A stretch of 64,000 nt of DNA from an uncultured Nitrososphaerota archaeon (GCA_964408285.1 CAYOYV010000002.1:110590-174589); one strand, 5' to 3'; positions 10,932-28,219 are shown, counted from the stretch's first letter. A program made the numbers and translations. The notes: generated from the letters alone by a model not told the origin.

Positions 10932-11786
10932 TCAGAGACTCTGCTGGGCTTGGATAGTGACCTTCATGGACTCCTTGGACTCTAGGTGCCTTTTCCTGCC
11001 GACAACATGAAGATGACCACCATATCCGATCAAACTCGGCTCCTCGCACAGCAATAGCTCCAGATCCAGGAGCTTCTTTGCCTTTGCCTCGTCCTGAAGG
11101 AGAGGCTCCGTTTCAGGCCTCGACACATACACCACAGTCTTCCCCAGAATTTTGACCACTTCCAAACCATTTGCTTCGAGCATGCTTCGCAGTTCGTCTG
11201 GAGAGAAAGCCCGGCAATAGAAGCCCCAGTTCGGTGCAAGGACTCTCTTTTCTAGCAATACCCTGCGCGCCTCTTCAGGACCACTCCTGACCAGCGAATT
11301 ACGTGCCATGCTGTAAAGGCTGTCCACGCCGGCAGCCATGTAACTACCGGGCTTCAATACCCTAGCCAATTCCATTACTGCCTTGTTCGGGTCACCACAG
11401 TAGGAGATCGGATCTCCTTCAGCGAGCACGTAATCAAATGTGTCGTCCGGGTAGGGTATGTCTCGTATATCGCCCTCCTTGAAGGTGACGAGGTGGTCCA
11501 AGCCCCTTTCAATCGCTTTTTTCTTGGCTACTTTGAGCATCCCCGCTGATATATCATAGAGAACGACCCTCAGGCCCTTCTCTGCGATAGGCAATGTCCA
11601 TTTTCCTGTTCCGCCACCGGCATCGAGAATAACCCCGTGATCAGGAAGATATGGTTCTATGTAGTGCCACGTTATCTTGTTATAGAGTTCTTTGAAGTAT
11701 GGATTCTCATATTCGCCGTCATATTGTTCAGCCGAACTATCGTAGTATTTGATCACGTTATGAATTTGCTCCATTGGTTCGCTCAA
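10932..11786 (-). CDS. class I SAM-dependent methyltransferase
   Basis: Motif I VILDAGGGTGKWTLPIA, motif II VVLYDISAGML, and post-I acidic DxxD. Confidence 0.8.
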   Translation of the reverse strand: MSEPMEQIHNVIKYYDSSAEQYDGEYENPYFKELYNKITWHYIEPYLPDHGVILDAGGGTGKWTLPIAEKGLRVVLYDISAGMLKVAKKKAIERGLDHLVTFKEGDIRDIPYPDDTFDYVLAEGDPISYCGDPNKAVMELARVLKPGSYMAAGVDSLYSMARNSLVRSGPEEARRVLLEKRVLAPNWGFYCRAFSPDELRSMLEANGLEVVKILGKTVVYVSRPETEPLLQDEAKAKKLLDLELLLCEEPSLIGYGGHLHVVGRKRHLESKESMKVTIQAQQSL

Positions 11787-11929
11787 TGTTCAATCTGTGT
11801 CATGAAGTTCGGCTTGTAATAAGAATTGTGATGTTTCGAATAGAGATCAGAACTTGAGGAAGTGGGGCCAGCACACGCGCGACGTGCGTCGAAGATCCTT
11901 CGGGAAAAAGCCCCTCTTTTGCATGATTA

Positions 11930-12664
11930 TCATCGCCTTCGGAGGAGCATCCTTCTCAGGATTAGATTCCTCGCGGCTATTCTTTCCATAATCTGCTCAA
12001 ACGCTTCACCGACCTTGAGCTCGAGGTTGAGCACGGTGCCTGTACGGCCTATATTGTCACGCCTCGTCAAGACCCTGACCCTTTCTGATATTGTTCCCAT
12101 TGAAATGTTCAATCGAGCAGCAACCTCGCTTTCCGTTCCGCGAATGCTTGACTCGATGTGACCGAATTCTGTCGGCTCTATCAGCATCAGCCTCTTATCA
12201 ACACCCCGAACCCTTGCTCCGGATTCCAGATCATCGAGTGAGATCGCTCCCCCGAAATAATAGAATTCGACCTCGGTTGTGCTTAACTTGGCCAGTGGAA
12301 GCGACACAGTCAGCTGCTCCAATGGATCTAGGATGAAGTAGCCCTTAGGGGTGGACTTAGGAGTCGCTTGTACAATGATCCTCTTCTTTATCTCAAGACC
12401 GCTGACCTCAAGAGCCGTCTGGATCCTAAATGAGGAGATCGGGCTCAAGAAGGCAATGTCCACATCACTTTTCTGGCTGACATCCCCTCTTGCAATGCTG
12501 CCGTGCGTGATGCATTCCAGTCCAGAACTATCAAGGATCCTCATTATCTGCAAAGCGCTCGATCTCTTCTCATGGACTGCCCTCCATCTCTGGGCATCGT
12601 AGATAACTTCTTTGGCCTCGCCTTTCCTTGATACCTTCTTGCTCAATTTGCTTGTGGCGCACAA
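11930..12664 (-). CDS. nucleotidyltransferase (Pol-beta superfamily) domain protein
   Basis: HGSIARGDVSQKSDVDIAF matches the hG[GS]...D.D NTase signature, followed by a C-terminal extension of about 130 aa. Confidence 0.55.
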   Translation of the reverse strand: MCATSKLSKKVSRKGEAKEVIYDAQRWRAVHEKRSSALQIMRILDSSGLECITHGSIARGDVSQKSDVDIAFLSPISSFRIQTALEVSGLEIKKRIIVQATPKSTPKGYFILDPLEQLTVSLPLAKLSTTEVEFYYFGGAISLDDLESGARVRGVDKRLMLIEPTEFGHIESSIRGTESEVAARLNISMGTISERVRVLTRRDNIGRTGTVLNLELKVGEAFEQIMERIAARNLILRRMLLRRR

Positions 12665-12874
12665 ATCAAGCTAATATTGCTTGTATCTCTCCTCGAAAAA
12701 GATGCCCTGAAAAGGGACCACCCTTGGGTCTTCATATGCATTTAATGAATCAGCGGGCAGCTCATGATAAAGCTGGCTCCTAATGGAACTCTGAAAGCCG
12801 ATATATCCTTGCAAGGACAGAAAAATGCGCTTCAATCAGGGCTCGGGGCAGGAGAAAGGCGGATCAGACTAAGC

Positions 12875-12890
12875 AAAAAACGTATAAAGC
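12875..12890 (+). promoter_or_regulatory. putative archaeal BRE/TATA element upstream of hppA
   Basis: A-rich tract followed by GTATAAAG about 45 bp upstream of the hppA ATG. Spacing is compatible with an archaeal promoter and a short 5' UTR. Confidence 0.3.
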
Positions 12891-12932
12891 ACCACCCCAA
12901 CAAGGGCCGGAAATCGGCCGTGATGATGAGCT

Positions 12933-14906
12933 ATGTACGATCCCTCGATCTTTGCTTTTGGGATAGGAGCCTTAGCTCTGGTGGTTGTCGCTTACCTAGT
13001 CCTCCGGATCCAAAAACAGGATTCGGGGAATCAGCGAATGAAGGAAGTGGCAGGTTACATAGCCATTGGCACCAACGCTTATCTCAGTAGACAAGTTAAG
13101 ACGATCGGCCTTGTCGTTCCTTGGTTATTCATTGCAATGTGGTTGGCATTCGGATCTTGGACGGCCATTGCATTCTTGTCAGGAGTTGCCCTTTCGCTCA
13201 TAGCAGGATATATCGGCATGAATGTGGCCATAAGATCCAATGTCAGGACTGCCAGCGCTGCAATAGTTTCAATGGGTTCTGCATTCAGGACTGCCTTTAT
13301 GGGCGGTTCCGTAACGGGCCTCTCTGTAACTGCACTCAGCCTTTTGGCTTTGTGCACGCTTCGCACCACGTTGGGGAATCTTGAGCCTTTGATTGGTTTT
13401 GGATTCGGAGGCAGCTTAGCAGCCCTGTTTGCTCAGATCGGAGGCGGGATATACACCAAGTCAGCGGACATTGGCGCTGATCTCGTCGGAAAGCTCGAGG
13501 AAGAGATTCCGGAGGATGACCCTAGGAATGCCGCAGTCATAGCTGATCTAGTCGGAGACAACGTTGGTGATTGTGCAGGCAGAGGCTCGGATCTATTCCA
13601 ATCATTTAGCGATGACATGATCACTGGAATGATCCTCGGTGCGATTTTCTCCTGGAAATACGGGGCAAATGGAGTGGTCTTTCCACTTGTCATGCAAGCA
13701 ACGGGTATCCTTGGCTGTATCGTCGGTATATCACTTGTCAGGGAATGGAAGGGGCGAAGCCCCTCCGCCTCACTCTTCCTGGGACTGTTCCTCGCGTCAG
13801 CAGTCAACGCGTTTGGATTGTACATACTATCCATGACGTTACTCAATGACTTCACGATATTCATAGCGGGATTGAGCGGACTCATTGCCACGCTGATCGC
13901 GGTCCTTGTCTCGGAATACTATACGGGCCTTGGAAACAGGCCGATCAGGCGCATGGCAGAAATCTCTCAAGGGGGAGCAGCAATCAACATCATAACTGGT
14001 TTCTCGTTTGGACTTCAGTCCTCGATTTTACCGATTCTGGCTGTTGTAGCAGCAATCATTATCTCGTTCGTGATTTCTGGAGGATCGCTATATGCTATTG
14101 TGGTTGCTAACATAGGCACAGATCTCCTATCCGCCTTCATCATGTCATCGGACGCATATGGGCCTATAGCGGACAACGCTGAGGGAATTGCCAGGATGTC
14201 CGGAGTCTCCGCGGAAGCGAGTGCCTCGTTGCAGAAGCTTGATGCAGTCGGGAATACGATGAAGGCTTCCACCAAAGCGTTCGCAATGGCATCAGGGACT
14301 CTAACGGCATTCGTCACCTTCCTCACGTATTTCAGCACTGCAGGCATACCCACATTGGCCGTCAGTGTGCCGTTTGCCTTGGCCGCACTATATCTCGGGG
14401 TTGCATTACCTTATCTATTCTCATCTCTCACGATCGGAGCGACTGCGAACGGGGCGCTTCGCATGGTATATGAGGTGAGGAGGCAGTTTAGGGAGATGGT
14501 AGGACTGAGAGAGGGCAAGACCACACCAGACTATGCGAGATGCGTTGACATAGCTGCTGCAAATGCGCTCAAGGAAATGGTGATACCTGGAATCCTAGCT
14601 TTCTCTGCGCCAGTAGTAATGGGTGTGCTATTTGGCCCCGAGGAGTTGGGAACAATGTTAGTTGGAGCGGCGGCGTCAGCTGCCCTGCTTGGTTTCTTTT
14701 TCAATAACGTTGGGGCTGCCTTTGACAATGCAAAGAAACTTGTGGAGACGGGATTGTATGGAGACAGGGGTTCCATAGCCTATAAAGCATCAGTCGTAGG
14801 GGATACGGTAGGAGACCCCCTCAAAGATGTAGCAGGCCCCTCACTGCTGATATTCATGAAGCTTGTAGGCATGACCGCCCTCTTGATATTGCGCCTGCTC
14901 CACTGA
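12933..14906 (+). CDS. hppA: membrane-bound H+/Na+-translocating pyrophosphatase
   Basis: Signature motifs GGIYTKSADIGADLVGK, DNVGDCAGRGSDLF and DAVGNTMKA. 657 aa with about 15 TM helices. Confidence 0.95.
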   Translation: MYDPSIFAFGIGALALVVVAYLVLRIQKQDSGNQRMKEVAGYIAIGTNAYLSRQVKTIGLVVPWLFIAMWLAFGSWTAIAFLSGVALSLIAGYIGMNVAIRSNVRTASAAIVSMGSAFRTAFMGGSVTGLSVTALSLLALCTLRTTLGNLEPLIGFGFGGSLAALFAQIGGGIYTKSADIGADLVGKLEEEIPEDDPRNAAVIADLVGDNVGDCAGRGSDLFQSFSDDMITGMILGAIFSWKYGANGVVFPLVMQATGILGCIVGISLVREWKGRSPSASLFLGLFLASAVNAFGLYILSMTLLNDFTIFIAGLSGLIATLIAVLVSEYYTGLGNRPIRRMAEISQGGAAINIITGFSFGLQSSILPILAVVAAIIISFVISGGSLYAIVVANIGTDLLSAFIMSSDAYGPIADNAEGIARMSGVSAEASASLQKLDAVGNTMKASTKAFAMASGTLTAFVTFLTYFSTAGIPTLAVSVPFALAALYLGVALPYLFSSLTIGATANGALRMVYEVRRQFREMVGLREGKTTPDYARCVDIAAANALKEMVIPGILAFSAPVVMGVLFGPEELGTMLVGAAASAALLGFFFNNVGAAFDNAKKLVETGLYGDRGSIAYKASVVGDTVGDPLKDVAGPSLLIFMKLVGMTALLILRLLH

Positions 14907-14973
14907 CATCTCGATACAGTAGCGAAGCTGTGCCCTCATCTGAGGATTGACGAAAGTATCCCAGTGAGAATGG

Positions 14974-16089
14974 TCATGCAGGCGCTTCGGCTTCTTCAAT
15001 AAGCAGAGAAGAAATCAGCATCATGAGTTCCTTCAGGCCTTCCCTGGTCTTTGCCGATATGCCGCAGTGGACCAATTCTTTGATGGTGGGTGAGAGTTCC
15101 TCGACTCTCTCCTGCAATTCATTCTGCCCTGTCAACAGATCACACTTGTTGAAAGCCAGTACAATTTTCCTATCCCCTATTCCAAGCTTTCTCAGCAAAT
15201 CGAGACATGTTTCAATTCTCAACTTCATCAGATCGATAGGGTCACTGACATCTACAACCAAGATCACAATGTCAGATGCCCTTATGTCCTCGAGCGTCAG
15301 GCTGAACGAAGCAATCAGGCGGGGATCAAGATCGGCCACGAATCCTATTGTATCTGCTACGAAAAGGCTCCTTTTGCCATCTGGCAGCAAATAGTATTTG
15401 CTGCTCAAAGTAGTGAAAGGCTTGGGACCGACCGCCTTGTTGAGATTCGTGAGCGCATTGAATAGTGACGTCTTTCCTGCGCTGTAATACCCTGCGATGC
15501 ACGCGGTCGGTATATTCATCCTCTTTCTCCTCGAGAGCTGCATTAGTTTCTCGCGCTTCTTTCTCGAGATCTCCTCCTGCAGATTTGATCTCCTCTTCAG
15601 GAGGCCAGCAACTATCTCATGATATGAGTATTCACCCAGGCTCTTGGGCCCGGGATGCTCCTTTCCAGTCTTATATCTTATAGATGCGACCAATCGTTCA
15701 TATGGTATCTCCTTGATCAGCTTCGCCAACGTTATCTGAAGCTTTGAAAGCTTGTCGGATGAGGAGAGATCGAATATCCTAAGAGTTAGGTCGTACCTGT
15801 CAAGAATCTCGCGTCCGAGCGACGTTGTGAGATTGTATTTTTGTTTGCTGGTTAAGACGTTGTAGAATATTATCGCGTCTACTTTGTCGTCGCTCGTTGC
15901 TTGCTTGATCTCGTCAAGCTTTCCCCTTCCAACCACGAATGCCGGATGTTCTCTTCTGCGAATCTGAATTGAAGAGCCGACTATGTCGAAGCCCGCTGCC
16001 TTGCTCAGATAGGCTAGTTCCTCCAGCCTCATCTTATATAGAGCATGATCGTGGGGATCCGTCTTGATGTAGCAAAGCCAAGCTTTCAA
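14974..16089 (-). CDS. hflX: GTPase HflX
   Basis: The N-terminal HflX domain is followed by a G domain (GYYSAGKTSLFNALT, DTIGF, NKCD). Confidence 0.85.
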   Translation of the reverse strand: MKAWLCYIKTDPHDHALYKMRLEELAYLSKAAGFDIVGSSIQIRRREHPAFVVGRGKLDEIKQATSDDKVDAIIFYNVLTSKQKYNLTTSLGREILDRYDLTLRIFDLSSSDKLSKLQITLAKLIKEIPYERLVASIRYKTGKEHPGPKSLGEYSYHEIVAGLLKRRSNLQEEISRKKREKLMQLSRRKRMNIPTACIAGYYSAGKTSLFNALTNLNKAVGPKPFTTLSSKYYLLPDGKRSLFVADTIGFVADLDPRLIASFSLTLEDIRASDIVILVVDVSDPIDLMKLRIETCLDLLRKLGIGDRKIVLAFNKCDLLTGQNELQERVEELSPTIKELVHCGISAKTREGLKELMMLISSLLIEEAEAPA

Positions 16090-16220
16090 ATTTTCGATTT
16101 AGTCGCCCACTTGCATTATTAACGTTTTCGATTGACAAAGGAATCCTACTGGAACTCATACTAGTCACGAAACGGCCACTGGCTATTGAGAAAGCCTTAA
16201 GGAAGAGTAATCCGGGATGA

Positions 16221-17441
16221 TTGAGAATGGCATCGGATTCCAAGAAGAAATTCGTGGGGCTTGTCACAGGAGCCACAATATATCAGATCGCGCTTTCGGT
16301 ACAGAGTTCGATAGCCTCACCCTTTTTCAATGACAGAGGTATCTCGGCGGAAGAGATAGGGCTCTTAAATTCAATCAATTGGGGGATCATCAGCTTTGCT
16401 TCAATGCCGAGTGGCAGGCTTTCCGATATTGTGGGACGAGTTGGTCCTTTCGTTCTCTCGAGCATACTGGGGTCAATTGCTTGCATACTGGTCTACTTCA
16501 GAGCTGACTTTCTCAGCGCGCTGATGCTCTACTTGCTGGTTGGGCTCTCGACAGCACTCTTTACGCCAAACGCCAGCGCCTTCATATCGGATATATTCGA
16601 AGCAGAGAGGGTGACCGTTCTTTTCGCAGCCTTCTATCTTCTCACGTTAGCGGGAGCAGCAATTGGCTCCATTCTGTCCGGCGTATCCTCACAGAGCCTA
16701 GGCCCCGAGTACCCGTTTCTCGTTGCTTCTGCTCTATTCGTCTTGTCGGCAATAGTCTACCCCCTACTCATCAGGCGGGAGATCAGAAGGAGGGCGCAAC
16801 GACATGACTTCCATACCATTGCGAGTACCTTTGACATTAGGGCGATGATATCAACAATCAGAAGGAACCCCGGTCTTCGTCTCTATGGATTTTCGCTGTT
16901 CTTCCACTCACTGGGGTTTCTGATGATAGGACCCTATGTCAGTCTATACTGCCAGAAGGTCGTAGGTCTTGACATTGCAGGCGTCGGTTTGGTCATAGCA
17001 GCTTGGAACTTTGGATTGGCGATCGGTTCTCTTCCATGGGCTTGGGCCAGTAGCAGAAGAGGGAGCGGCTATGTCTTACTTGGCCATTTCATTCTTTCCT
17101 CGCTGAGCTGGCTTGTGTTCACCTCCGCCAGGGATATGATTTCGGCAGTCGCATTTGGTTTGATCCTTGGTTTGGTTGGAGCAATGGATTTGCCGGCAAG
17201 AAGAACAATAACGATTGGATTTGCCCAGAACGGCAGACTCGGGGAAACGATGGGTTTCATCGAATTGGTCAATGGGATGGGAGGGCTGTTTGGAGGCGTT
17301 ATCGGAGGGATCCTCTGGGAGAGACTCGGCCCGGCTTTGCCATTTTATGCTGCCGCTATCTTGACCTTGATTTCAGTTCCACTGGCACTGATCGCTATGA
17401 GTGGCAAGTATAACAGGAGCGCTCGTCAGGTCCAATTCTAA
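16221..17441 (+). CDS. MFS transporter
   Basis: 12 predicted TM helices. The GRLSDIVGR motif sits between TM2 and TM3 (the MFS signature). Confidence 0.8.
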   Translation: MRMASDSKKKFVGLVTGATIYQIALSVQSSIASPFFNDRGISAEEIGLLNSINWGIISFASMPSGRLSDIVGRVGPFVLSSILGSIACILVYFRADFLSALMLYLLVGLSTALFTPNASAFISDIFEAERVTVLFAAFYLLTLAGAAIGSILSGVSSQSLGPEYPFLVASALFVLSAIVYPLLIRREIRRRAQRHDFHTIASTFDIRAMISTIRRNPGLRLYGFSLFFHSLGFLMIGPYVSLYCQKVVGLDIAGVGLVIAAWNFGLAIGSLPWAWASSRRGSGYVLLGHFILSSLSWLVFTSARDMISAVAFGLILGLVGAMDLPARRTITIGFAQNGRLGETMGFIELVNGMGGLFGGVIGGILWERLGPALPFYAAAILTLISVPLALIAMSGKYNRSARQVQF

Positions 17442-17509
17442 CCCTGAATTCCCAAAGGCATTCAATTCCGATGTCGCCTGATGGGGGACCTTGTAGAATT
17501 CAGCGTCAT

Positions 17510-17914
17510 TCATGAAGGATAGGCTGAGATGGCGCGTTTGATTCTCCTTTCAAGGGATCTAATGTCCGGATATCGTATCCAAGTTATTTTCGGCGCACCC
17601 AGAAGCATTCGGGAAAGCCTCGCCCTTCTCGGGGCGACAGCCACTATCGGCTTATTCAGCATCAGCGCAAGCATTATCTCCATGCCTACTCCGTGGCTTG
17701 GTCTCGAGACATCGGCCACGAGGATGTCCGCAGTTCTGATGCCTTCGGTATCCCTCGCATAGACCTTCTCAGGTGGAAGACCGAAGCCCGGATCCTTCTT
17801 CACCAGCCACTCTGAAACGACATCGGTTCCCGCAATTGACAGAACGTCGTAGAGACGCCTCGCCATCCTGAGCCTTCTTCCCTTGATTATTGGACATGAC
17901 AGATACACCTTCAT
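17510..17914 (-). CDS. nucleoside 2-deoxyribosyltransferase-like (flavodoxin-like fold) protein
   Basis: 134 aa. VYLSCPI...ADILVADVS...HGVGMEIMLALMLNKPIVAV resembles the NDT/LOG-like family with a conserved Glu in a G..E motif. Confidence 0.45.
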   Translation of the reverse strand: MKVYLSCPIIKGRRLRMARRLYDVLSIAGTDVVSEWLVKKDPGFGLPPEKVYARDTEGIRTADILVADVSRPSHGVGMEIMLALMLNKPIVAVAPRRARLSRMLLGAPKITWIRYPDIRSLERRIKRAISAYPS

Positions 17915-18094
17915 TTTCCAGCTCTCGTCTTCATTGATGCCTCATAAGACTTCCGGTTGGCTCCCCTATGAAATCAGATCGTTAGGTAGGCCCGCCTTTG
18001 AGCTTCAGATTTCCCGTTGAAGTGAATTCTCAGGGAACGGCATTCACACATTAGAGATAAATAGCCATGAGGTGACGAATCCCAGCGAAGGAAA

Positions 18095-18976
18095 TTGTTC
18101 TTAGCGATTAGGGATTTTACGGTGAAATGGATCGGATACGAGAACGTGTATGCAGGCTTGAAGGACTTGGGGTTGAAGAGCTTCGAGCTATACATGGATA
18201 GAGAACTGAAGGGAGCGAAATATAGAGACATGGGAGAAGAGGTACCACTTGGATTCGATCTTTCGACCTCAGAGAAGAGAAGAGAGCTATCAGAACAGCT
18301 AGGACAAGAGGGCCTGACAGTTTGTGCCATACTCGTTGAGAATGATTTCGCGCGGACCGACCTCAAATCAGAGATTGACTGGATAGTCAGAACTTGCGAA
18401 GTGGCTCCACAAATAGGATGTGATACTGTGAGAATCAATCCCCCAATGAGAATACAGGAGGGAATTTCTGAGGGCCAGTATCTTGACATAACCATAGACT
18501 GTTGCAGGGAGATACTGGAGAGAACAAAGACAACAGGTGTCTCGTTGGCAATGGAGAATCATGGAGTCATGGGCAACAGATTCGAGTTTCTGAGAGGAGT
18601 ACTCGAGAGTATTGGATCGGAAAGAATGGGATTGAATCTCGATACTGGGAATTTCTATTGGTTTGGCTATCCGCTGGGAAGAGTGTACGAGATCATAGAG
18701 TATTTCGCTGGGAAGGCCAAGCACACTCACATTAAGAACCTTAAGTTTGCCGAACAGAAGCGCAATAGCTTCAGAAAACCAGGGGAGGACTGGCCGAGCT
18801 CGGGGGCAACGATATACGAGGGGGATATTGATCACAGGAAAGTGCTGAACTGGCTCAGGCAGGCTGGCTACGAAAGGGATCTGACCCTTGAGGATGAATC
18901 TCTGGGGAGATTCGATGTGAAAGAAAGGATTGGGATAGTGAAGGAAGACCTGAGATTTCTCAGAGGACTCATATGA
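18095..18976 (+). CDS. sugar phosphate isomerase/epimerase (xylose isomerase-like TIM barrel)
   Basis: AMENHG, NLDTGNF and HTHIKN metal-ligand pattern. The start is uncertain (TTG at 18095, GTG about 27 nt downstream). Confidence 0.75.
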   Translation: MFLAIRDFTVKWIGYENVYAGLKDLGLKSFELYMDRELKGAKYRDMGEEVPLGFDLSTSEKRRELSEQLGQEGLTVCAILVENDFARTDLKSEIDWIVRTCEVAPQIGCDTVRINPPMRIQEGISEGQYLDITIDCCREILERTKTTGVSLAMENHGVMGNRFEFLRGVLESIGSERMGLNLDTGNFYWFGYPLGRVYEIIEYFAGKAKHTHIKNLKFAEQKRNSFRKPGEDWPSSGATIYEGDIDHRKVLNWLRQAGYERDLTLEDESLGRFDVKERIGIVKEDLRFLRGLI

Positions 18977-19081
18977 TTCTTCTGCGCGCTTATCCCACGG
19001 TGCTATAGTCTCTTACAGACACGGAGAAAGAGCAAGAGTTGAAGAGATTTCTTCACGTTAAGGCTTAAATGAAGGGACGGA

Positions 19082-19333
19082 ATGCTATCCTGGCATATGC
19101 AAGAGGACATTCGCCTTAGGATTCTGAGGTTTCTGAACGAATCTGATCAACAGGTGGATTTCTCGACCCTCGTGAAGCAGCTTAACTTAGAGGTAACGGA
19201 ATTGGCAATCGAGCTGGACATCCTGATACACGAGAAGAGATTCGTAAGCGTCGTGGATCTAGGTTCGAGTTCCTCTTATGCGATCACATCTGCTGGAATC
19301 GAGGAATTGAAGATGTTACAGGGCAAATGCTAG
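19082..19333 (+). CDS. small winged-helix-like DNA-binding protein (hypothetical)
   Basis: 83 aa. LRILRFLNESDQQVDFSTLVKQLNLEVTELAIELDILIHEKRFV has an ArsR/MarR-like wHTH pattern. Confidence 0.4.
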   Translation: MLSWHMQEDIRLRILRFLNESDQQVDFSTLVKQLNLEVTELAIELDILIHEKRFVSVVDLGSSSSYAITSAGIEELKMLQGKC

Positions 19334-19405
19334 AAAGAAGCCACGTGATCCGTCGAAATGCCAGGTCGTCCGATTCAGACTAAAGATCGTATCTCCGAAT
19401 CGGAT

Positions 19406-21664
19406 TCAAGAACTCTTCGATCTTACCTCTGTATAGCCCCTGTCGTTCCTTAGGAGGACTATATGATGATCGACTAGATTCGATAGATCTTCATGCGATA
19501 TAATGAATATCTGTTGGAATGTTGCCTTCATTGCATCCAAGACCTCAAATATCCCCAACTTCCTTGAATTGTCACTGCTGGATATGCATTCGTCCATAAG
19601 GAGGCAGTGTCTCTCAGCAGCGACCCTTGATTCCAGGATACTCTGAGTGAAAGCCAATCTCAACGCTATCAGGAACTGGTCTTGAGTTCCGCCGCTGAAG
19701 ATCTCTCTCTCCTTGTAGCCACCGGCTGATGAAGAATGTACCTTGAACTTCAGATCTTCGGATATCTCGAAATCGGAGTACCTTCCATCCGTTATCAACG
19801 GCAGAATCTGATTTATGATGTAAGAGGCTTGAGGAATCACCTTGGCCCGGAGTTCCCTTCCTGTTTCCTTCATTTCCTCAATGATCCTGTTCAGCAGATT
19901 CGCCCTGCGTTCGAATTCCTTAACCTCCAGATCCAGATCCGGGAACCTGATGTAATCGCCTCGCAACCTTTCCAAGTCCCCGTCGGCTTGTTCGATTATG
20001 GCTCTTGTGGTCTTGAGCTTGCTGCTGAGCTCGTTCAATCTAGTCTGGCAGCTGTCCGACACCTGCTTCGAAGCATAATGCTTCATTGGATCATATCCGA
20101 CGGCCGAGATGCCCTCTGGCCTGTTCATTGAAAGCGTCTTTACCTTGTCAGTTAGCTCGGAGATCTCATTCTCCAAGGTTCTGCTTTTTTGCTCAAGTCC
20201 AGCTGAGGCAACGGACTTCTCCTGTGCCTTAAGATCCCTGACTGCGCCCCCCAGCGCCTCCAAAGAATCATGCCCTGTCTCCGCCCTTATTCTGCGTAAC
20301 GCCTCATCCAAATCCCTTTTGACCTCACCAGAATCGGAGTGGCCACTCTTGTTTTTCAGGGCCAAGAGGTCCTCCTGTGCTTTCTCCAGTTGGTTTGATA
20401 GGCTCGCGATCTGGACGAAATAGGCCCTTACCTCAGACAGCTTCGTGAAAAGCCTGTCAGCCCTTAGATATCTCCTGAAGAAATGAATTCCAAGGATCGC
20501 TGGCATGCATGCAACAAGCAGGACAAGGGATTGATTCCAAAGCAAACCAACAACTAATACGATCGAGGCCAGAGCGCCTAATATCCCAGTCAATTGCAGG
20601 TTCCTGGACTTAAGTCTGCCAAGATCCACAGGAGTGAGCATGGCAGCTTCCTTCTCCAGTCCCATCTGCTCAATGGCACTAGATTTCGCACGATTAGACT
20701 CACCAAGTTCATGCATCAAATCCTTGATCCTCGCCTCAATCTCTTGAAATGAACGCTGTTGGTCCTGCAATTCCTGCACAATCTCTGCATCCCTTGCAAT
20801 GACTTCCTCGTATCGAATGACCGAAGTCCGTATCTTCTCTAGGCCTTCCCTCTGAGCGAGCACCTGCTCCAGCTCACCTTCCTTTGACTTTAGAAGCTCG
20901 TTTGAGGAATAGAATGCGTAGAGCCACTCATGGCCTTCATATGTTCTATTGGCTTCCCCAAGTTCTTTGGCACATTCTTTCACCTGAAGATCTAGCTGTT
21001 TCTCCTCCGCCTGAAGCTTTGTCTTGAACCGCATTTTCTCGTCATATTCTTCCTTGTTGGCTTTGACTCTCTCCAACTCCGATCTCTTCTGGTCTAGGAC
21101 GGCCTTCTCGGACGATGCATCGGCCTTCACCTTATCGGAAGCCTTGTCGAACAGATCGATTCCCATGACCTTATTCAGCAGTTGTTCCCGTTGTGATTTC
21201 ACGAGATCTTTCAATGCATCTAGGTCTTTCTGCCTCATGTAGATCAGCTTCGCAAAGGAATCTCTGTCCATTCCTGTCAGCTGCTCTACCATAGCTTCAA
21301 TTGCCGTTATGCTCGTGATCTCATTGCGCTTGTCTTCATTCCCATCGATCACAGGTACCAGACGAGCCGAATGGCCGGACTGAACCCCGAACCTTCTTGC
21401 CATTCTATAGCGTTTCTCCGCTGAGCTGAATTCAAGTTCGAGTTTCGTCTCTGATTTCCCCCATGTGACCAGATTCTCGCGTTGTTCCTCAATTCCGGGA
21501 CCTTTCTTCAGGCCATATAGAGCGTACTCGATAGCCTGAAACAAAGTGGTTTTGCCGCTCTCGTTTGGACCAAATATGCCAATCCTGCCCTTCTCAGGGA
21601 ATTCAAGTTCTATTCTCTCGCCGAACACCTTGAAATTCTCTGCTACGAGCCTGTGCAGGATCAT
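19406..21664 (-). CDS. Rad50/SbcC-family SMC-like ATPase with central hydrophobic hairpin (YhaN-like)
   Basis: N-terminal Walker A GPNESGKTT and Q-loop MRQKD. Long coiled-coil arms. C-terminal signature FSGGTQDQ, Walker B/D-loop CLLMDE and H-loop IISHE. Residues about 358-396 (LTGILGALASIVLVVGLLWNQSLVLLVACMPAILGIHFF) form two TM-like helices at the coiled-coil apex. No CxxC hook is present. Confidence 0.85.
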   Translation of the reverse strand: MILHRLVAENFKVFGERIELEFPEKGRIGIFGPNESGKTTLFQAIEYALYGLKKGPGIEEQRENLVTWGKSETKLELEFSSAEKRYRMARRFGVQSGHSARLVPVIDGNEDKRNEITSITAIEAMVEQLTGMDRDSFAKLIYMRQKDLDALKDLVKSQREQLLNKVMGIDLFDKASDKVKADASSEKAVLDQKRSELERVKANKEEYDEKMRFKTKLQAEEKQLDLQVKECAKELGEANRTYEGHEWLYAFYSSNELLKSKEGELEQVLAQREGLEKIRTSVIRYEEVIARDAEIVQELQDQQRSFQEIEARIKDLMHELGESNRAKSSAIEQMGLEKEAAMLTPVDLGRLKSRNLQLTGILGALASIVLVVGLLWNQSLVLLVACMPAILGIHFFRRYLRADRLFTKLSEVRAYFVQIASLSNQLEKAQEDLLALKNKSGHSDSGEVKRDLDEALRRIRAETGHDSLEALGGAVRDLKAQEKSVASAGLEQKSRTLENEISELTDKVKTLSMNRPEGISAVGYDPMKHYASKQVSDSCQTRLNELSSKLKTTRAIIEQADGDLERLRGDYIRFPDLDLEVKEFERRANLLNRIIEEMKETGRELRAKVIPQASYIINQILPLITDGRYSDFEISEDLKFKVHSSSAGGYKEREIFSGGTQDQFLIALRLAFTQSILESRVAAERHCLLMDECISSSDNSRKLGIFEVLDAMKATFQQIFIISHEDLSNLVDHHIVLLRNDRGYTEVRSKSS

Positions 21665-22830
21665 CTCTCTGCCTCTAGGTATTTTAGACCCAATTCCCTG
21701 ACCTCCAAGAGCAACCCCGTAATCGCCGGATCCGAAGTCTCTGAGATCATCTTGTCAAGCCGGCCGACAAAGGCTTCAATTGGATTCTCGATTCTTCCCA
21801 GGAAGATCCTGCCGACTCCCTCGACCTCAAGTTGACTGCGATCTAATACGAGATGAAAGAACATCTCATTGCAGGCCCTGTATATGTCGTTGAGCTTCAT
21901 CTTGGCGTACTGGATCTGAGACACATTACCGGTGAGACTGAGTTTCAGCATTTTCTTCTCGTCTCGATGCTTCCTTAGGAAATCCTCTACCGCCTCGTTT
22001 AGCTTCTCGCCGAAGGATTTCGATAACGGTAGCTCGTGTGCTTCCATCGGGCGTGTGTCAAGTTTTATGAACTCGCTTGAAGCTTCACGTTCATTGAGTT
22101 CAACCCAGTAGAATCCCTTCTCGTCATTCATTTCGGCCCAACTTAGCTTCTCTATTGAGCCTGGATTGCATATGAGACATCCATCGTGTTCTCTCTTGAA
22201 TGAATTGTGATAGTGACCTAGGGCCAAGTAGTTCAAGCCCTTTCGGATGTCCTTTGGGCCAAACGGATTCTGATTGCTCATCTCGGGGATAACCGGCGTG
22301 ACGCCTAATCCAGCAAGTGAACCATGAAGCATGAGGATGTTCCGGTGGCCGTCTAGTGGAACCTTTTCTCCCTCTAGCGGATTCTTTCCCTCGTATCTGG
22401 CGTAATAGGATTTGCCCGATACACATATCGTGCTTCCGTCCATCCGCAATAGCTTCTTCTGGATTCTTTCAGAGCCAGAAAAGACAGTTGCGAGTCCGGC
22501 TGATCCCAGGACGTCTATCGCGAGTTGGGCATATTCGGACATTCTGGGGACGTCGTGGTTTCCTCCAATCATGAAAACGGATATGTTGCTGTCATCGAGT
22601 TCCCTAATCAAACGTGTTACCAAGACCCTAGAGAAATTACTTGGTAGGAGTTTGTCGAATATATCTCCACTTATCAAGAAAAGATCCGGTCTATTTGCAA
22701 TTGCGTAATTAACTATTGCCGAGAAATTCCTATTGAGGTCTTCCTTTCTCTCATAACTTCTTACAATATCGGGTATGTTGAAATTCTTGTCAAGGTGCAA
22801 ATCACTGCAATGGATGAATTGTACCGTCAT
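21661..22830 (-). CDS. Mre11/SbcD-family calcineurin-like phosphoesterase (nuclease)
   Basis: Phosphoesterase motifs CSDLHLD, GDIFD, GGNHD, MLHG and GHYH. The stop overlaps the start of the downstream SMC-like gene by 4 nt (ATGA). Confidence 0.85.
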   Translation of the reverse strand: MTVQFIHCSDLHLDKNFNIPDIVRSYERKEDLNRNFSAIVNYAIANRPDLFLISGDIFDKLLPSNFSRVLVTRLIRELDDSNISVFMIGGNHDVPRMSEYAQLAIDVLGSAGLATVFSGSERIQKKLLRMDGSTICVSGKSYYARYEGKNPLEGEKVPLDGHRNILMLHGSLAGLGVTPVIPEMSNQNPFGPKDIRKGLNYLALGHYHNSFKREHDGCLICNPGSIEKLSWAEMNDEKGFYWVELNEREASSEFIKLDTRPMEAHELPLSKSFGEKLNEAVEDFLRKHRDEKKMLKLSLTGNVSQIQYAKMKLNDIYRACNEMFFHLVLDRSQLEVEGVGRIFLGRIENPIEAFVGRLDKMISETSDPAITGLLLEVRELGLKYLEAER

Positions 22831-23082
22831 TTTTATCCCTCCAGATTAGTAGATTTCCTCCAAAAAACCGAAGAAGCGGAAAGGTCGGCATGAGAGGCCA
22901 AAATATCATAAATCAAGCTAAACATCAGATTAGCGGATTTAAGTCTACCCTTCCCTTGCATATGCCATGCCGCAGAAGGAGCTAGATATGTGAGAATAGC
23001 ATGATTCGGGAGAAATCATGGAGCACCACCTGGGCATTGCGTAACATCTGAAAGGATACACGAACAAGGGATTTGGTTCGTT

Positions 23083-24297
23083 CTACATTTTGGGCCTTGT
23101 CTTTTCGATGAATTCGTCCACTTCTCTTATCAAGGAAGGCTCCTTTGTCCCCGTGAGTGCATATACTCTCTGCTTGAATAGCTCTATTTCTGCGCTGCCC
23201 GTTAGGACTTGGACCTCTAGATATAGATCCCTCTGGTCATTCGGCTTTAGGAATTGGAGGGTGCCCCATTTTCTTTCCTTGTCCCTCCCCAGAACAAGAG
23301 CATTCGCCGGCTCAAGTCCAACGACGTACTCGCCTTCACCCATCATCTTCCATTCGATGAGTCTGTTGAGCTCTGATTTCCTGAATTTCAGTCCGATTCC
23401 AATCCCTTGGCCTTCGTTGAAGCCCTCATTCACAATTCCAGCATAGCAGAAACCTTCAGGATCAGTAGCAAGGTCATGGAAATACACTTTCTCTTTGAAC
23501 CCCTCTGTGGGAGGCTGGAACTCAGCGTATTTCTCGTAGCCCTTCCATGCCTCTTCATCTCTCGGGACATATCTCATTGAGCTCGAAAGAAATCTGGATC
23601 CCGCATCCAATACAGGAAACCCAATGTTGAAGTGATAGAGTATCATGAATGGTTCAGTTCTCCAGCCCTCGTTCGTTATTGTGTCCTTTATCGTGAATTT
23701 GTTCTCTCCCAACTTGGCCTCTATTCTTCGGTACAGAACCAGATTCGGACCGAACACACTCGCTTCTCTGACCTTCCCCTCTATCGACATCACGTAATCT
23801 TCGCCCCTCCATTCAGTTCGAGCCGCAACAGAATCGGCAGGCGTGTAGGCTATCCTTCCGTGCAGACCCAATTGCTCTCCCTCATCCACGCAAGCTGCAC
23901 CACAGTGCGTCAAGCCGCACATCGTCAGAAGCCCGCCGAAGAAACCTTGGAGCCATCCTCTGCCTGACGGATCGTACTGCTCTGGTGCTGTATCTCCAGT
24001 CTGGCTTTTCCACCCCAGCGCGGCTCCTCGATATTCGGCGTTCGAGATCGCCATTCCTCTGTCCAGGAGAACCAGGAAAGAGAAGCCTGCTCCAGTACTG
24101 ACTATTGCGGCTTTGACGTCCCTTTCAGCTCCTTCGTCAAGCTGGACCAGTCGAATTCCGCCCAGCTGATTCATCCTTCCGACGTATTTGGCAATCGTGG
24201 CATCGTATGACTTTCCATACAATTCGACCATCTTGCACGACACTGACTTGATGATATATATCTGAGAATTTAAGACTTCAATCCCAAGCTTTCCCAA
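23083..24297 (-). CDS. galactose-mutarotase-like (aldose 1-epimerase/DUF4432-like) protein
   Basis: All-beta predicted. Motif ILYHFNIGFPVLD. The size (about 400 aa) is typical of DUF4432 proteins found in sugar clusters. Confidence 0.45.
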   Translation of the reverse strand: MGKLGIEVLNSQIYIIKSVSCKMVELYGKSYDATIAKYVGRMNQLGGIRLVQLDEGAERDVKAAIVSTGAGFSFLVLLDRGMAISNAEYRGAALGWKSQTGDTAPEQYDPSGRGWLQGFFGGLLTMCGLTHCGAACVDEGEQLGLHGRIAYTPADSVAARTEWRGEDYVMSIEGKVREASVFGPNLVLYRRIEAKLGENKFTIKDTITNEGWRTEPFMILYHFNIGFPVLDAGSRFLSSSMRYVPRDEEAWKGYEKYAEFQPPTEGFKEKVYFHDLATDPEGFCYAGIVNEGFNEGQGIGIGLKFRKSELNRLIEWKMMGEGEYVVGLEPANALVLGRDKERKWGTLQFLKPNDQRDLYLEVQVLTGSAEIELFKQRVYALTGTKEPSLIREVDEFIEKTRPKM

Positions 24298-24416
24298 TCA
24301 TTCGCTGTGAGAACCCTAAGTCAGGGAGCATAACCTTCATATCTACGCCAAAGGGCATCGCGAGACTGCTGCTCTTGTGCTCTTCAAAGCCGAAAAGGAG
24401 AACTCGGATAAAGGCT

Positions 24417-25031
24417 ATGGCTTTTGATTTCGATGGAACACTTGTGGATTCGCTGGATTTCTTGGCTCGAGGATGGGAAGAAATAGCATCGGAATTGAAG
24501 ATATACCTCAGGACGGATTTGCGAAACCTAGTTGGCTTGACGGCTGAGCAGATAGCATATGAGATCTCATCGGGGGAACCGTTGTTGCAGGAAAGACTAT
24601 TGAGAAAAAGATCCGAGGTCTTTGAGGCAAAAAGGTTTGTCAACGAAGCAAAGCTCTTTCCTGAAACCAAAGGGGTATTGAAGGAGCTTCGGAGAAGGGG
24701 ATTTCCGCTGGCGTTGGCAAGCTCAACGGTGGCTGCAAGGCTACTCGAGCTTGCAGATCTATACAAGATCTCAGATTTATTTGATCTGATAATAGGGGGT
24801 GATGAAGTCGCGAGAAGCAAACCGGCGCCTGACCTCTTATTGGAAACGGCTAGGAGACTTCAATTAGAACCAAGGAGCCTTGCATATGTCGGAGATACTT
24901 CTTACGATATTGAATCCTCTTTGGCCGCTGGGTCTGTGGCCATTCTAGTGAACAGAACCGGATCTCGATACGAGGGGCCCGACCCGGATTTTGTGATTTC
25001 GAACATGGAGGGATTACATCTTCTCCTCTGA
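24417..25031 (+). CDS. HAD-superfamily hydrolase (beta-phosphoglucomutase-like subfamily IA)
   Basis: Motif I AFDFDGTLVDS, motif II LASSTV, and motif IV GDTSYDIESSLAAG. The start was set at the ATG of MAFDFDGT. Confidence 0.8.
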   Translation: MAFDFDGTLVDSLDFLARGWEEIASELKIYLRTDLRNLVGLTAEQIAYEISSGEPLLQERLLRKRSEVFEAKRFVNEAKLFPETKGVLKELRRRGFPLALASSTVAARLLELADLYKISDLFDLIIGGDEVARSKPAPDLLLETARRLQLEPRSLAYVGDTSYDIESSLAAGSVAILVNRTGSRYEGPDPDFVISNMEGLHLLL

Positions 25032-25121
25032 GTGTCTGGCCTTGTCCTGAACATATGTCGCAGAGACGCGCGATCATTGAACGATTATAAGGAAGCACTT
25101 GGATTGATGCAGTATCGCACC

Positions 25122-26222
25122 ATGCGGTACAAGATCGCAGTTATAGGAGTTGGCGTCGTAGGGAAACTACATCTCGATGTCATCAAAGAATTAGCAAATG
25201 CCGAAGCAATTGCCGTGGTTGATGTCAGAGAGGATGAAGGAAAAGCCACGGCTTCGAAATATGGTCTCAAGTGGTACTCGGACTACATGGAAATGATCGA
25301 AAATGAAAAACCTGACATGGTCAGCGTCTGTCTCCCCCACTTTTTGCATTCGAAGGTCGTTTGCGATGCCGCTCGTGCCGGGGTGAACGTCCTTGTAGAG
25401 AAACCAATGGCGATTAGTATAAAGGAATCAGATCGAATGATAAGCATGGCAAAGAGGAGTGGAATCAAGCTAGGCGTTGTTTTCCAGAATAGGGAAAGGG
25501 CCATTGCGAAGAGATTAAAAAAGATAGTTGCAGATGGCACCTTGGGCGACCTAATGAGAGCTCTATTGGAGTTCAACACGTTCAGAAGTCAAGCGTATTA
25601 CAGTAGCGCTGGATGGAGAGGAAGATGGCAAACCGAAGGAGGGGGAGTTCTGATCAATCAGGGTATTCATCACCTTGACCTCTTCCAATGGGTCATAGGA
25701 AAAAAACCAAGGAGACTCTGCGCGTTTACCAACACAATGGCGCACGACATAGAAGTGGAGGATCTCGCAACATCGATCATCGAATTTGAGGAATGTACTC
25801 AGGCGGCAATTCAGATGAGTACAATAGACCACCCCACTATATGCAGAATTGAATTGAGGGGCCAAAACGCATATGCAGAGTTCGACGATAAATCAATCAA
25901 GCTGGCCCGGAATAACCCTACGATTGGAGATAGATCGAAACTCCAGGAAATGTGGGCGACACCAGAACTCACTCTGGAAGAGATTGAAGAACCTAAGGAG
26001 GAGGCAAAGAAGCTCCACGAAGCGGTATATCTTGACTTTCTGGACTCGATGACGCACGATAGGCAACCAGCCGTGTCCGGGGAGGAGGGGCGCAAATCCG
26101 TCGAGATAGTCAATGCTATCGTGGCCTCCAGTTTCACAAGAAGGCCGGTTCGTTTTCCATTGGATGCAGATAAATACGAACAGATATTGAGGAAGCTGTC
26201 GAAAAGCTCTAGGAAAAAGTGA
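25122..26222 (+). CDS. Gfo/Idh/MocA-family oxidoreductase
   Basis: MRYKIAVIGVGVVG Rossmann motif and the EKP motif (VLVEKPMA). The C-terminal dimerisation domain is present. Confidence 0.85.
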   Translation: MRYKIAVIGVGVVGKLHLDVIKELANAEAIAVVDVREDEGKATASKYGLKWYSDYMEMIENEKPDMVSVCLPHFLHSKVVCDAARAGVNVLVEKPMAISIKESDRMISMAKRSGIKLGVVFQNRERAIAKRLKKIVADGTLGDLMRALLEFNTFRSQAYYSSAGWRGRWQTEGGGVLINQGIHHLDLFQWVIGKKPRRLCAFTNTMAHDIEVEDLATSIIEFEECTQAAIQMSTIDHPTICRIELRGQNAYAEFDDKSIKLARNNPTIGDRSKLQEMWATPELTLEEIEEPKEEAKKLHEAVYLDFLDSMTHDRQPAVSGEEGRKSVEIVNAIVASSFTRRPVRFPLDADKYEQILRKLSKSSRKK

Positions 26223-26228
26223 CGCCAT

Positions 26229-27362
26229 TCATATCAAGGACGCTGAGATCTTAGGAGGAGAGGCGTAGTCCGAGTACCTTTGGGCGATTTCTGCCACATG
26301 GGAGTCACCGTTGTGAACGCAAATCCTGTACTTGAATTCCAGTTTCTCATCTCTTCTCATAAGTAGTCCTCCTCTCTCATGCGGCTCACCGTTGAAGATC
26401 GTCGCACCGAATACATTCGCTGTCATCAGTCCATAGTCCCTCACATGCCAATACGTCGGATGCCTAGGATTCTCCGGAGCGTCAAGTATGGCTATTCCCT
26501 GCCAAGTTCCATCGACTGGACCGGAATAGTCGCACCAATTCGCCTTCTTTCCCCAAGTTTTGACCTCATTTATGCCCCCCCATGAGTTCTCAATTCTGCC
26601 GCCGTTCTCAACTTCCATGGACTCCCTGACTCTAACGCATATGGCGCCTGCCTCCTTTGTGTCCCCGAACAAAACATCCCGATAAGGTGCCGAGAAAAAG
26701 GATTCATGGTCCAACAGCCATTGCCTGTCAGGAGCATTCCAGAGCCTTATGGTCCTTCTTTCCTCCAGCAGCTTCTCTGATAGAAAACTGCTCCATGTGA
26801 GGTACATGGTTATCTCCGAAAAGACCGGGCCGGCGACTACGCGCGGCGTTCCTCTGGTTGTAATGATCCCGTGGTTAGGCAACTCACTCCAGATGTCGTT
26901 CTGGTTGACATCGCCATGGGCAACCCAAAGTGATTTGTGATGAACATGATCCGGAGGTTCATTCCATGTCAAAGGAAGACCTGTTGGGCCGTTCAGTGGG
27001 AAAACGAATGGTCTGCTCGACTTGCTGGAGTAGTTGCAGCACATGATGAGATCCGTCCCTCTCGAGACTGTGATTTGCTCGTGTGTCGCTTCGGCAAGGA
27101 GAGGGTCTTGGAGAGCGTCAGCCATCTCACCCTTGACGAGAAAGAACCTCAAGATCTGGGATTTCCCGCTATGCAAACCTATCCAATGGACGTTGAGTCC
27201 TTCATCTGAAAACGTGAATTGGGCAGGAATCCCTTGCCCCTTCTCGTCAACAAGAGCCAGATCAGTTGCTCCGTGCAGACTGGCCCCTAAGATTGCATGG
27301 ACGGGAGTTGGCGATCCGCCTCTGGATCCGGTCTTCCACTTCATGACGGCCAATCGTTTCAT
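26229..27362 (-). CDS. PmoA-family/DUF6807-like protein
   Basis: HHKSLWVAHGDVN and HVRDYGL motifs. The size and context (beside a Gfo/Idh/MocA gene and a TIM-barrel isomerase) are typical for this family. Confidence 0.45.
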   Translation of the reverse strand: MKRLAVMKWKTGSRGGSPTPVHAILGASLHGATDLALVDEKGQGIPAQFTFSDEGLNVHWIGLHSGKSQILRFFLVKGEMADALQDPLLAEATHEQITVSRGTDLIMCCNYSSKSSRPFVFPLNGPTGLPLTWNEPPDHVHHKSLWVAHGDVNQNDIWSELPNHGIITTRGTPRVVAGPVFSEITMYLTWSSFLSEKLLEERRTIRLWNAPDRQWLLDHESFFSAPYRDVLFGDTKEAGAICVRVRESMEVENGGRIENSWGGINEVKTWGKKANWCDYSGPVDGTWQGIAILDAPENPRHPTYWHVRDYGLMTANVFGATIFNGEPHERGGLLMRRDEKLEFKYRICVHNGDSHVAEIAQRYSDYASPPKISASLI

Positions 27363-28219
27363 CTAGATCCCCCCCAGAAGTAGGTCCTTAGATTTCTGAT
27401 GCTTTCGCTCGCTGTCTCAATTGGATCTCTCGGGCGATCAAATATCTCAACTGAGACGAATCCCTTGTAATCGATGTCTTTCAGCGCCCGTGCGATTGAA
27501 TCATAGTCAGCGTTTCCCATTCCCGGTGCCTTTCCATTTGTATCGTTGGCATGGAAGTGTGCAAGAAAAGGAGCTGAACGCGTGATTATCTCGTGCATCG
27601 ACTTCTCCTCGTCGCTCATGCTATAGACATCCAAGGTCATCCGCATATTCGGAAGCCCTACGTCTTCTATCATTCTCATTGCCTCCTCGGCAGTATTGAT
27701 GAAATTGGTCAGGCTTCGCGAAAGCGGCTCCAAGCAAAGGAGAACATCCAGCCTCTCTGCCTCCTCACAGCAGTATCTCAGGATCTGTTTCGCAAACACC
27801 CAAGCGTCCTCTTTACGAACGTTCTTTGAAATGCTTCTTTGTTTCGGAGACCCTAGAACAATAACATGACCTCCGATATCGGCGGTGAATGCGATCAGGT
27901 CAGCCATGTAATTCTTGGTCCTCTCTCTTGTTGACGCGTCTGAATGAGTCAGATGAAGACCCGCGGGTGAAACAAGGACCCAGTGTATCCCCACTATTTC
28001 CAATCCATTTGAAGCGGCCAGCCCTCTCAAGGCCTCCCTGTCCTTCCTACTAATCTTTCTGACATCGTCTGAAATAGTGAAGGGTGCAATCTCTATACCG
28101 CGATAGCCGAGTTCAGAGACGATTTCGAATGACCTGTTGATATCAGTATTGGAGAGGAGTTCGTTGCATATTGAGAATCGCTGGCTCATATCTCTTCCTG
28201 ATTGGGCGCTTTCAATCAT
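27359..28219 (-). CDS. sugar phosphate isomerase/epimerase (xylose isomerase-like TIM barrel)
   Basis: GYRGIEI, LCLEP and HFHAND motifs. The 3' end overlaps the PmoA-like start by 4 nt. Confidence 0.8.
   Translation of the reverse strand: MIESAQSGRDMSQRFSICNELLSNTDINRSFEIVSELGYRGIEIAPFTISDDVRKISRKDREALRGLAASNGLEIVGIHWVLVSPAGLHLTHSDASTRERTKNYMADLIAFTADIGGHVIVLGSPKQRSISKNVRKEDAWVFAKQILRYCCEEAERLDVLLCLEPLSRSLTNFINTAEEAMRMIEDVGLPNMRMTLDVYSMSDEEKSMHEIITRSAPFLAHFHANDTNGKAPGMGNADYDSIARALKDIDYKGFVSVEIFDRPRDPIETASESIRNLRTYFWGGSR

Follow-up and report, generated by a model that had tools for sequence, protein, structure and literature searches.

In a 64,000-nt stretch of DNA from an uncultured Nitrososphaerota archaeon (GCA_964408285.1 CAYOYV010000002.1:110590-174589), hereafter the window, we analyzed two adjacent genes at positions 19406–22830, counted from the first letter of the window, which encode an Mre11/SbcD-like nuclease and a Rad50/SbcC-like ATPase. 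At the apex of its coiled coil the ATPase carries a hydrophobic helical hairpin where Rad50 has its zinc hook. We read the pair as the lineage's own Mre11-Rad50 machine for processing DNA ends, in a membrane-anchored variant, and not as a separate module for defence or DNA uptake; we give this a probability of roughly 60%. The reading is based on the nearest solved relatives, which are archaeal Rad50 and Mre11, on the linkage of orthologous pairs to nurA and herA, and on the finding that the Rad50 encoded beside HerA is of the membrane type.

Both genes are on the minus strand. The open reading frames (ORFs) for the nuclease (389 aa; 21661–22830) and the ATPase (752 aa; 19406–21664) have exactly the boundaries given in an earlier, sequence-based description of this stretch (the original prediction). 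They overlap by 4 nt. The plus strand at 21656–21670 reads CAGGATCATCTCTCT, and the start codon of the ATPase gene and the stop codon of mre11 thereby overlap as ATGA at 21661–21664 on the minus strand, as also predicted. The identical 4-nt overlap is seen in the orthologous loci L001, L002, L005 and L013, and the two genes are probably translationally coupled. A GGAGGG sequence 6 nt upstream of the mre11 ATG (22837–22842, minus strand) may act as its Shine-Dalgarno sequence.

Pfam (Metallophos, 7.7e-13) identifies the 389-aa protein as a phosphoesterase of the calcineurin type. It matched the NCBIfam models Mre11_Sulfo (1.9e-28) and sbcd (5.8e-20), in both cases below the curated cut-off, and its top matches among solved structures were Methanocaldococcus jannaschii Mre11 (3auz/3av0, 6e-16 in a PDB sequence search) and also Pyrococcus furiosus Mre11. 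The phosphoesterase motifs DxH, GD, GNHD, H and GHxH are complete, as DLH 10–12, GD 55–56, GNHD 90–93, H169 and GHYH 205–208. Thus, the ATPase is encoded together with an Mre11/SbcD nuclease whose active-site motifs are intact.

To describe the ATPase we used 120 homologues with 40–82% identity, the closest among the matches listed, and an alignment of 113 homologues. Walker A (GPNESGKT, residues 32–39; 21548–21571, minus strand) lies in a region where G32, N34, E35, G37, K38 and T40 are invariant across the 113 sequences. It is followed by a Q-loop with a conserved Q145-K-D. The ABC signature is FSGGTQDQ (residues 656–663; 19676–19699, minus strand), and Walker B is LLMDE (residues 688–692; 19589–19603, minus strand). 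L688, M690, D691 and E692 are invariant in the alignment, as is the H-loop residue H724. FSGGTQDQ itself was found in 120/120 homologues. It takes the form xSGG[TA]xDQ in the wider family, whereas archaeal Rad50 has SGGE and the zinc-hook relatives have FSGGE.DL; the divergence from LSGGE pointed out in the original prediction is supported. All elements of a Rad50/SbcC head are thus present, split by a long antiparallel coiled coil, and this domain architecture is evident in both the sequence and the structural model described below. What the protein lacks is the zinc hook. It has five cysteines, and no CxxC was found anywhere in it or in any of the 120 homologues; at the apex there is a hydrophobic hairpin instead.

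Profile and structure searches placed the ATPase with Rad50. The Pfam matches were AAA_23 (8.2e-15, 56.4 bits), SMC_N (4.2e-12) and AAA_27 (1.4e-5, 25.3 bits, just above the cut-off of 22), so that the Rad50/SbcC-type N-terminal domain fits better than the YhaN-type one. The NCBIfam Rad50 model PRK03918 matched with 4.4e-28 (97.8 bits against a cut-off of 700). A PDB sequence search returned M. jannaschii Rad50 (2.5e-25), and in a Foldseek search of the PDB with the model of the 752-aa protein the Rad50 chains 7zr1 and 3auy ranked first. For both proteins, archaeal Rad50 and Mre11 were the best of the solved structures, with bacterial SbcC and SbcD behind. The nuclease-ATPase pairing proposed earlier is in agreement with the motifs and with both kinds of match.

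The coiled coil ascends over approximately residues 170–344 (20633–21157, minus strand) and descends over approximately residues 397–625 (19790–20476, minus strand). Between the two arms, at the exact midpoint of the protein, lies the predicted transmembrane (TM) helical hairpin (residues 358–396; 20477–20593, minus strand), consisting of TM1 (358–376), an NQS turn and TM2 (378–396). On the Kyte-Doolittle scale with 19-residue windows, values above 1.6 were confined to residues 355–398, with peaks of 2.34 for LTGILGALASIVLVVGLLW (358–376) and 1.93 for QSLVLLVACMPAILGIHFF (378–396). A plain sum of Hessa scale values gave −1.3 kcal/mol for TM1 and +3.6 kcal/mol for TM2, while the minimum elsewhere in the protein was +8.4 and the mean +23. 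The AlphaFold2 model computed from the family alignment (mean predicted local distance difference test score 81.7) has a head like that of Rad50, from which a long antiparallel helical stalk extends. The ascending arm is one continuous helix (169–333), the tip is formed by a helix (345–375), a turn (376–378) and a second helix (379–440), and the descending arm is made up of helices 386–440, 445–463, 468–486, 490–513 and 526–624. Hydropathy, charge depletion and the model thus agree with the predicted hairpin at the apex.

The 113-sequence alignment shows what is conserved in this block. The charged fraction is 0.01–0.02 in both hairpin segments compared with 0.35–0.37 in the coiled-coil arms, and the flanks are enriched in K/R (0.26 and 0.22) relative to D/E (0.10). 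Mean column identity in the block is 0.41, the lowest in the protein, compared with 0.77–0.88 in the heads. As hydrophobicity is kept while the sequence drifts, selection acts on hydrophobicity and not on sequence. Together with the basic flanks, this is how helices that face lipid and have both ends in the cytoplasm are expected to look. The descending arm opens with a juxtamembrane Y399-x3-D403, both residues of which are conserved at 90% or more. In relatives of 1010 aa the block is still central and both arms carry matching insertions, as expected of an antiparallel coiled coil.

To assess the distribution of this architecture we ran an exhaustive HMMER search of 1.84 billion protein cluster representatives, which yielded 9295 matches with E<=1e-3 and 149 with E<=1e-30. 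Of the best 150 representatives, 128 were near full length and were classified. The central hydrophobic block together with the signature xSGG[TA]xDQ was found in 118/128; six had a central CxxC and the signature FSGGE.DL instead, and four had neither CxxC nor block. The block, which is present in all 120 homologues, is central across protein lengths of 570–1320 aa, and in loci whose proteins measure 613 to 1010 aa its relative position is 0.43–0.52. In a scan of species-representative genomes, FSGGTQDQ proteins occurred in archaeal-labelled metagenome-assembled genomes (MAGs) of Bathyarchaeia, other Thermoproteota, Nitrososphaerota and Heimdallarchaeota, and in bacteria of the Caldisericota, Dictyoglomota and Chloroflexota as well as one Faecousia MAG. 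No cultured archaeal member appeared in the homologue searches, and a query with the thermophile-type protein of L023 returned only MAG and metagenome sequences. Each long contig among the matches carried one copy, and a second family member was seen on none.

Several relatives depart from this pattern. Chloroflexota/Thermoflexus proteins of 1120–1260 aa (L030, L033, L035, L039-L042, L045-L047) retain FSGGTQDQ and an adjacent Mre11, have no hydrophobic block and, except for L041, no CxxC. Two bacterial membrane-type relatives, L053 5001–7880 (959 aa) and L056 5976–8864 (962 aa), have the signature LSGGTVDQ and two central hydrophobic segments. No Mre11/SbcD-like gene adjoins either of them, so a nuclease partner is not a constant feature of the broader family. 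Contigs labelled Tenericutes, Saccharibacteria, Fraserbacteria and Thermoplasmata (L006, L018, L025 and L020) carry a Bathyarchaeia-type pair with 43–66% identity to the window protein, in L006 together with NurA and HerA; these are probably mis-binned contigs or mislabelled MAGs. We also considered the closest zinc-hook representatives (~800 aa, FSGGE.DL) as the Rad50 of Bathyarchaeia, and rejected them after finding that the two inspected have a bacterial context and neither Mre11 nor HerA.

The gene neighbourhood was compared across 18 non-redundant archaeal loci. Mre11 is encoded immediately upstream of the ATPase in 18/18. HerA is present in 10/18, NurA in seven, and a divergent NurA in three more (Pfam-confirmed for L023 and L044). 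Ten of the 18 loci are thus four-gene clusters, arranged as mre11-rad50-nurA-herA or nurA-herA-mre11-rad50. Such clusters were found in L002-4, L006-9, L015, L021 and L052, and L023, L024, L026 and L044 have the order nurA-herA-mre11-rad50 with a membrane-type rad50. The cluster-borne orthologues are 40–46% identical and have the same FSGGTQDQ and the same hairpin. One relative of 1010 aa lies within an mre11-rad50-nurA-herA cluster, and so does one of 752 aa on a 1.95-Mb contig. Beyond Mre11, NurA and HerA, no gene was common to more than 3/18 loci.

We then looked at the linkage from the side of HerA, using 80 metagenomic loci of which 47 had enough upstream sequence to be evaluated. In 35/47 the adjacent Rad50 was of the membrane type, and a zinc-hook Rad50 adjoined HerA in 0/47. 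Neither Mre11 nor Rad50 was encoded within reach, up to 10 kb, in the remaining 12 loci (L086-L088, L110, L113, L120-L122, L127, L129, L132 and L136); nine of these have nurA-herA, and L086-L088 have HerA alone. In a rough neighbor-joining tree the window protein grouped with a clade that has the pair only (L001, L005, L013), sister to the clade of the operon type. As both halves are found separately, as pair-only loci and as nurA-herA-only loci, the four-gene operon appears to have been split in some lineages. The original prediction had taken the absence of HerA and NurA to mean that this is not the housekeeping Mre11-Rad50 complex. The absence near the pair is real, but the conclusion drawn from it is not supported, given the clusters of the orthologues, the Rad50 type beside HerA, the archaeal Rad50 and Mre11 as best solved matches, and the sugar-metabolism and housekeeping genes, not defence genes, that surround the pair in the window. 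It had also named a finding that would speak against it, namely a pair that is the only Mre11/Rad50 of its genome in an ordinary orthologous context. The context part of this was found, as the context is both ordinary and orthologous.

A number of observations weigh against the pair being the lineage's own Mre11-Rad50 in membrane-anchored form. A tblastn search of the 64-kb window found no homologue of NurA or HerA, and no close HerA was matched on two contigs of the pair-only clade (1.38 and 1.47 Mb), which is suggestive but not conclusive; this sub-clade may work without NurA-HerA. Some orthologous loci adjoin BREX genes, integrases or HEPN genes. Both proteins miss the curated equivalog cut-offs (Rad50 97.8 bits against 700–1087, Mre11 99.8 bits against 500–600). 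The membrane insertion of residues 358–396 is itself only predicted, and TM2, which contains a proline and a histidine, is marginal on the Hessa scale.

Some of these observations would fit a specialized extra paralogue in a genome that also has a canonical zinc-hook Mre11-Rad50. Such a pair would deal with foreign or incoming DNA at the envelope, in defence or uptake, rather than repairing the chromosome. Besides the missing nurA-herA in the window and its sub-clade (L001, L005 and L013), the HEPN/PriCT, BREX or integrase/HNH/PLD-helicase genes near the pair in L001, L002 and L052 point this way. So do a full-length LmuB-type match in PADLOC (2.9e-25) and the bacterial analogue SbcE, which is found at the competence pole and affects transformation (PMC2811018). 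We nevertheless regard such a paralogue as unlikely. The orthologues of the sister clade are embedded in nurA-herA clusters, no zinc-hook Rad50 was seen beside HerA in the 47 evaluable loci, and no long contig carried a second family member. The comparison of orthologous neighbourhoods for defence genes that had been suggested earlier did reveal BREX and HEPN genes near some pairs, but nothing other than Mre11, NurA and HerA is shared by more than three of the 18 loci, and the neighbours in the window are metabolic. Less probable still is a Lamassu-like SMC defence system with the Mre11-like protein as effector, which we think has very little in its favour other than the PADLOC LmuB model PDLC03859 matching ATPase residues 2–732. 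LmuB is itself described as derived from Rad50 (PMC12663957), and on that account such a match is expected from shared ancestry. Rad50 models outscore LmuB, and no equivalents of LmuA or LmuC were found, the neighbours being Mre11 and metabolic genes. Moreover, the partner is a bona fide Mre11, and the orthologues are linked to NurA-HerA.

The hairpin could also lie outside the membrane; in this case the complex would be soluble, with a greasy four-helix dimerization knob in place of the zinc hook. In all known relatives the apex of Rad50 is a dimerization element, and TM2 is only marginally hydrophobic, which would both suit such a knob. The central domain of Bacillus subtilis SbcE, moreover, was reported as insoluble and not as membrane-bound (PMC2811018). 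This arrangement seems improbable to us, although less so than a Lamassu system, as ~39–45 consecutive residues are nearly uncharged, whereas 36% of the rest of the protein is charged, basic residues are concentrated on either side of the block, and the block retains its hydrophobicity while its sequence drifts. Soluble helical bundles are amphipathic, and a uniformly apolar block is unlike them.

Among the known systems, the archaeal Mre11-Rad50 complexes of M. jannaschii, P. furiosus and Sulfolobus resemble the pair in the split ABC head, the antiparallel coiled coil and the adjacent Mre11 with an intact active site, and the window pair's orthologues share an operon with NurA and HerA, as in the archaeal system. 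Unlike archaeal Rad50, the window ATPase has no CxxC and has a predicted transmembrane hairpin at the apex; it is also shorter, as predicted, and scores far below the curated Rad50 cut-offs. Unlike the archaeal herA-mre11-rad50-nurA cluster, the window pair is detached from nurA-herA. Most likely it descends from archaeal Mre11-Rad50 and works like it. Escherichia coli SbcCD is alike in being a two-gene module of nuclease and SMC-like ATPase that works without HerA-NurA, as in the pair-only arrangement of the window. SbcC, however, has a zinc hook, and archaeal Rad50 and Mre11 give stronger sequence matches than SbcCD. Lamassu LmuB and the archaeal ASRP/ClsN/Sph proteins share the Rad50-derived head and the coiled coil. 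LmuA and LmuC have no counterpart here. ASRP is matched only weakly, as the window ATPase scored 25.2 bits against the NCBIfam ASRP cut-off of 300; it also has no CxxC, while ASRPs carry a zinc hook (PMC9389158).

The closest described analogue is B. subtilis SbcE (YhaN), with SbcF (YhaO), and SbcE stands alone among described proteins in sharing this peculiarity. It is an SMC/SbcC-like ATPase without CxxC whose central domain is hydrophobic and insoluble, and a gene for an SbcD/Mre11-like nuclease lies beside its own; it has roles in break repair and transformation and localizes to the competence pole (Krishnamurthy et al., 2010, PMC2811018). The window ATPase likewise lacks CxxC, has a hydrophobic center and an adjacent SbcD-like nuclease, and matches the YhaN-type domain AAA_27, so that the YhaN/YhaO-like architecture suggested in the original prediction holds against the published description. 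As a Pfam proxy for putative orthology to YhaN, AAA_27 (25.3 bits) scores below AAA_23. SbcE/SbcF differ in being bacterial and without a NurA-HerA link, and the central domain was not described there as a membrane hairpin (PMC2811018). Neither cluster names, nor the contexts of the 959- and 962-aa bacterial representatives, nor Pfam scans identified a YhaN orthologue. SbcE is 963 aa long. A literature search on transmembrane or membrane-anchored Rad50, on YhaN/YhaO and membranes, and on Bathyarchaeia Rad50, which did not cover the ABC ATPase classification of Krishnan et al. (2020), returned nothing relevant other than PMC2811018, and no transmembrane form is mentioned in a survey of archaeal SMC-related proteins from 2022.

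Under the Mre11-Rad50 reading, the hairpin would enter the cytoplasmic membrane from its inner face, leaving a short loop outside, and both arms would return into the cytoplasm. Two hairpins could pack in the membrane and hold the tips of the coiled coils together, closing the Rad50 ring as a zinc hook would. The Mre11 dimer and the ATP-engaged heads would then hang ~25 nm below the membrane, by our own estimate from ~165–175 helical residues at 1.5 Å per residue, and DNA ends would be clamped and cut there. In many related archaea the pair is presumably co-transcribed with NurA and HerA, and these two would perform the long-range resection for homologous recombination. In the sub-clade of the window the pair has become detached from nurA-herA. 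Tethering may serve to hold broken ends, or to act on membrane-proximal or incoming DNA.

The surroundings of the pair in the window consist of metabolic and housekeeping genes, including xylose-isomerase-like TIM barrels, GFO/IDH/MocA oxidoreductases, a HAD hydrolase, an MFS transporter, HflX and an H+-PPase. The flanking regions 23083–28219 and 17510–18976 probably form a sugar or inositol-type metabolic cluster with DUF4432, a HAD hydrolase, a GFO/IDH/MocA oxidoreductase, DUF6807, two xylose-isomerase-like TIM-barrel proteins and a nucleoside 2-deoxyribosyltransferase-like gene; in L001, too, the orthologous pair has GFO/IDH/MocA genes beside it. The predicted small winged-helix gene (19082–19333, plus strand) exists as an 83-aa ORF convergent with the ATPase gene. 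Its winged-helix match is weak (HTH_34, 8.4e-4, below the cut-off), and we rejected it as a part of the system, since the only other contigs that carry it are from the same species (L050) and it is absent beside the pairs of other lineages.

Some orthologous loci have neighbourhoods of their own. The flank L001 12656–18709 contains a weak HEPN match, a PriCT_1 primase-like gene and many small ORFs, and L052 contains a PLD-helicase with an nSTAND-like region, an HNH gene, a pP_pnuc_1 gene and an integrase (1–2360 and 11576–19934); both flanks resemble variable or mobile regions. In L002, BREX-type genes (PglZ, BrxC-like, methyltransferase) lie directly upstream of mre11. About 8 kb downstream of its four-gene cluster, L002 also encodes a second SMC-like ATPase (21008–22945, minus strand; 645 aa) with two central CxxC motifs (CPFC...CPIC), beside a gene for a 218-aa protein and one with a DAC (diadenylate cyclase) domain (19351–21008). 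A reverse-gyrase-like gene (helicase and Toprim/topoisomerase IA) directly follows nurA-herA-mre11-rad50 in L023 (10819–14130) and L026 (10869–13004), which suggests that their carriers are (hyper)thermophiles.

The zinc hook is regarded as a hallmark of Rad50/SbcC, and models of Mre11-Rad50 hinge on the apex of the coiled coil. A large, uncharacterized natural family that spans Archaea and Bacteria, swaps the hook for a predicted membrane hairpin and keeps Mre11 and, in archaea, the linkage to NurA-HerA would constitute a natural experiment on what the apex does, and it suggests a physical tie of break repair or DNA-end processing to the membrane. The hydrophobic central domain of SbcE had been noted without being interpreted as a membrane anchor (PMC2811018). 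In Bathyarchaeia and several other uncultured Thermoproteota the membrane-anchored form might even be the only Mre11-Rad50 of the cell, which we propose tentatively, at somewhat less than even odds. If so, the zinc hook would not be universal in Rad50, as a transmembrane hairpin would join the coiled-coil tips in these organisms; the resection of double-strand-break ends with HerA-NurA would be tethered to the cytoplasmic membrane; and a large bacterial family, possibly with SbcE/YhaN among its members, would share the same solution.

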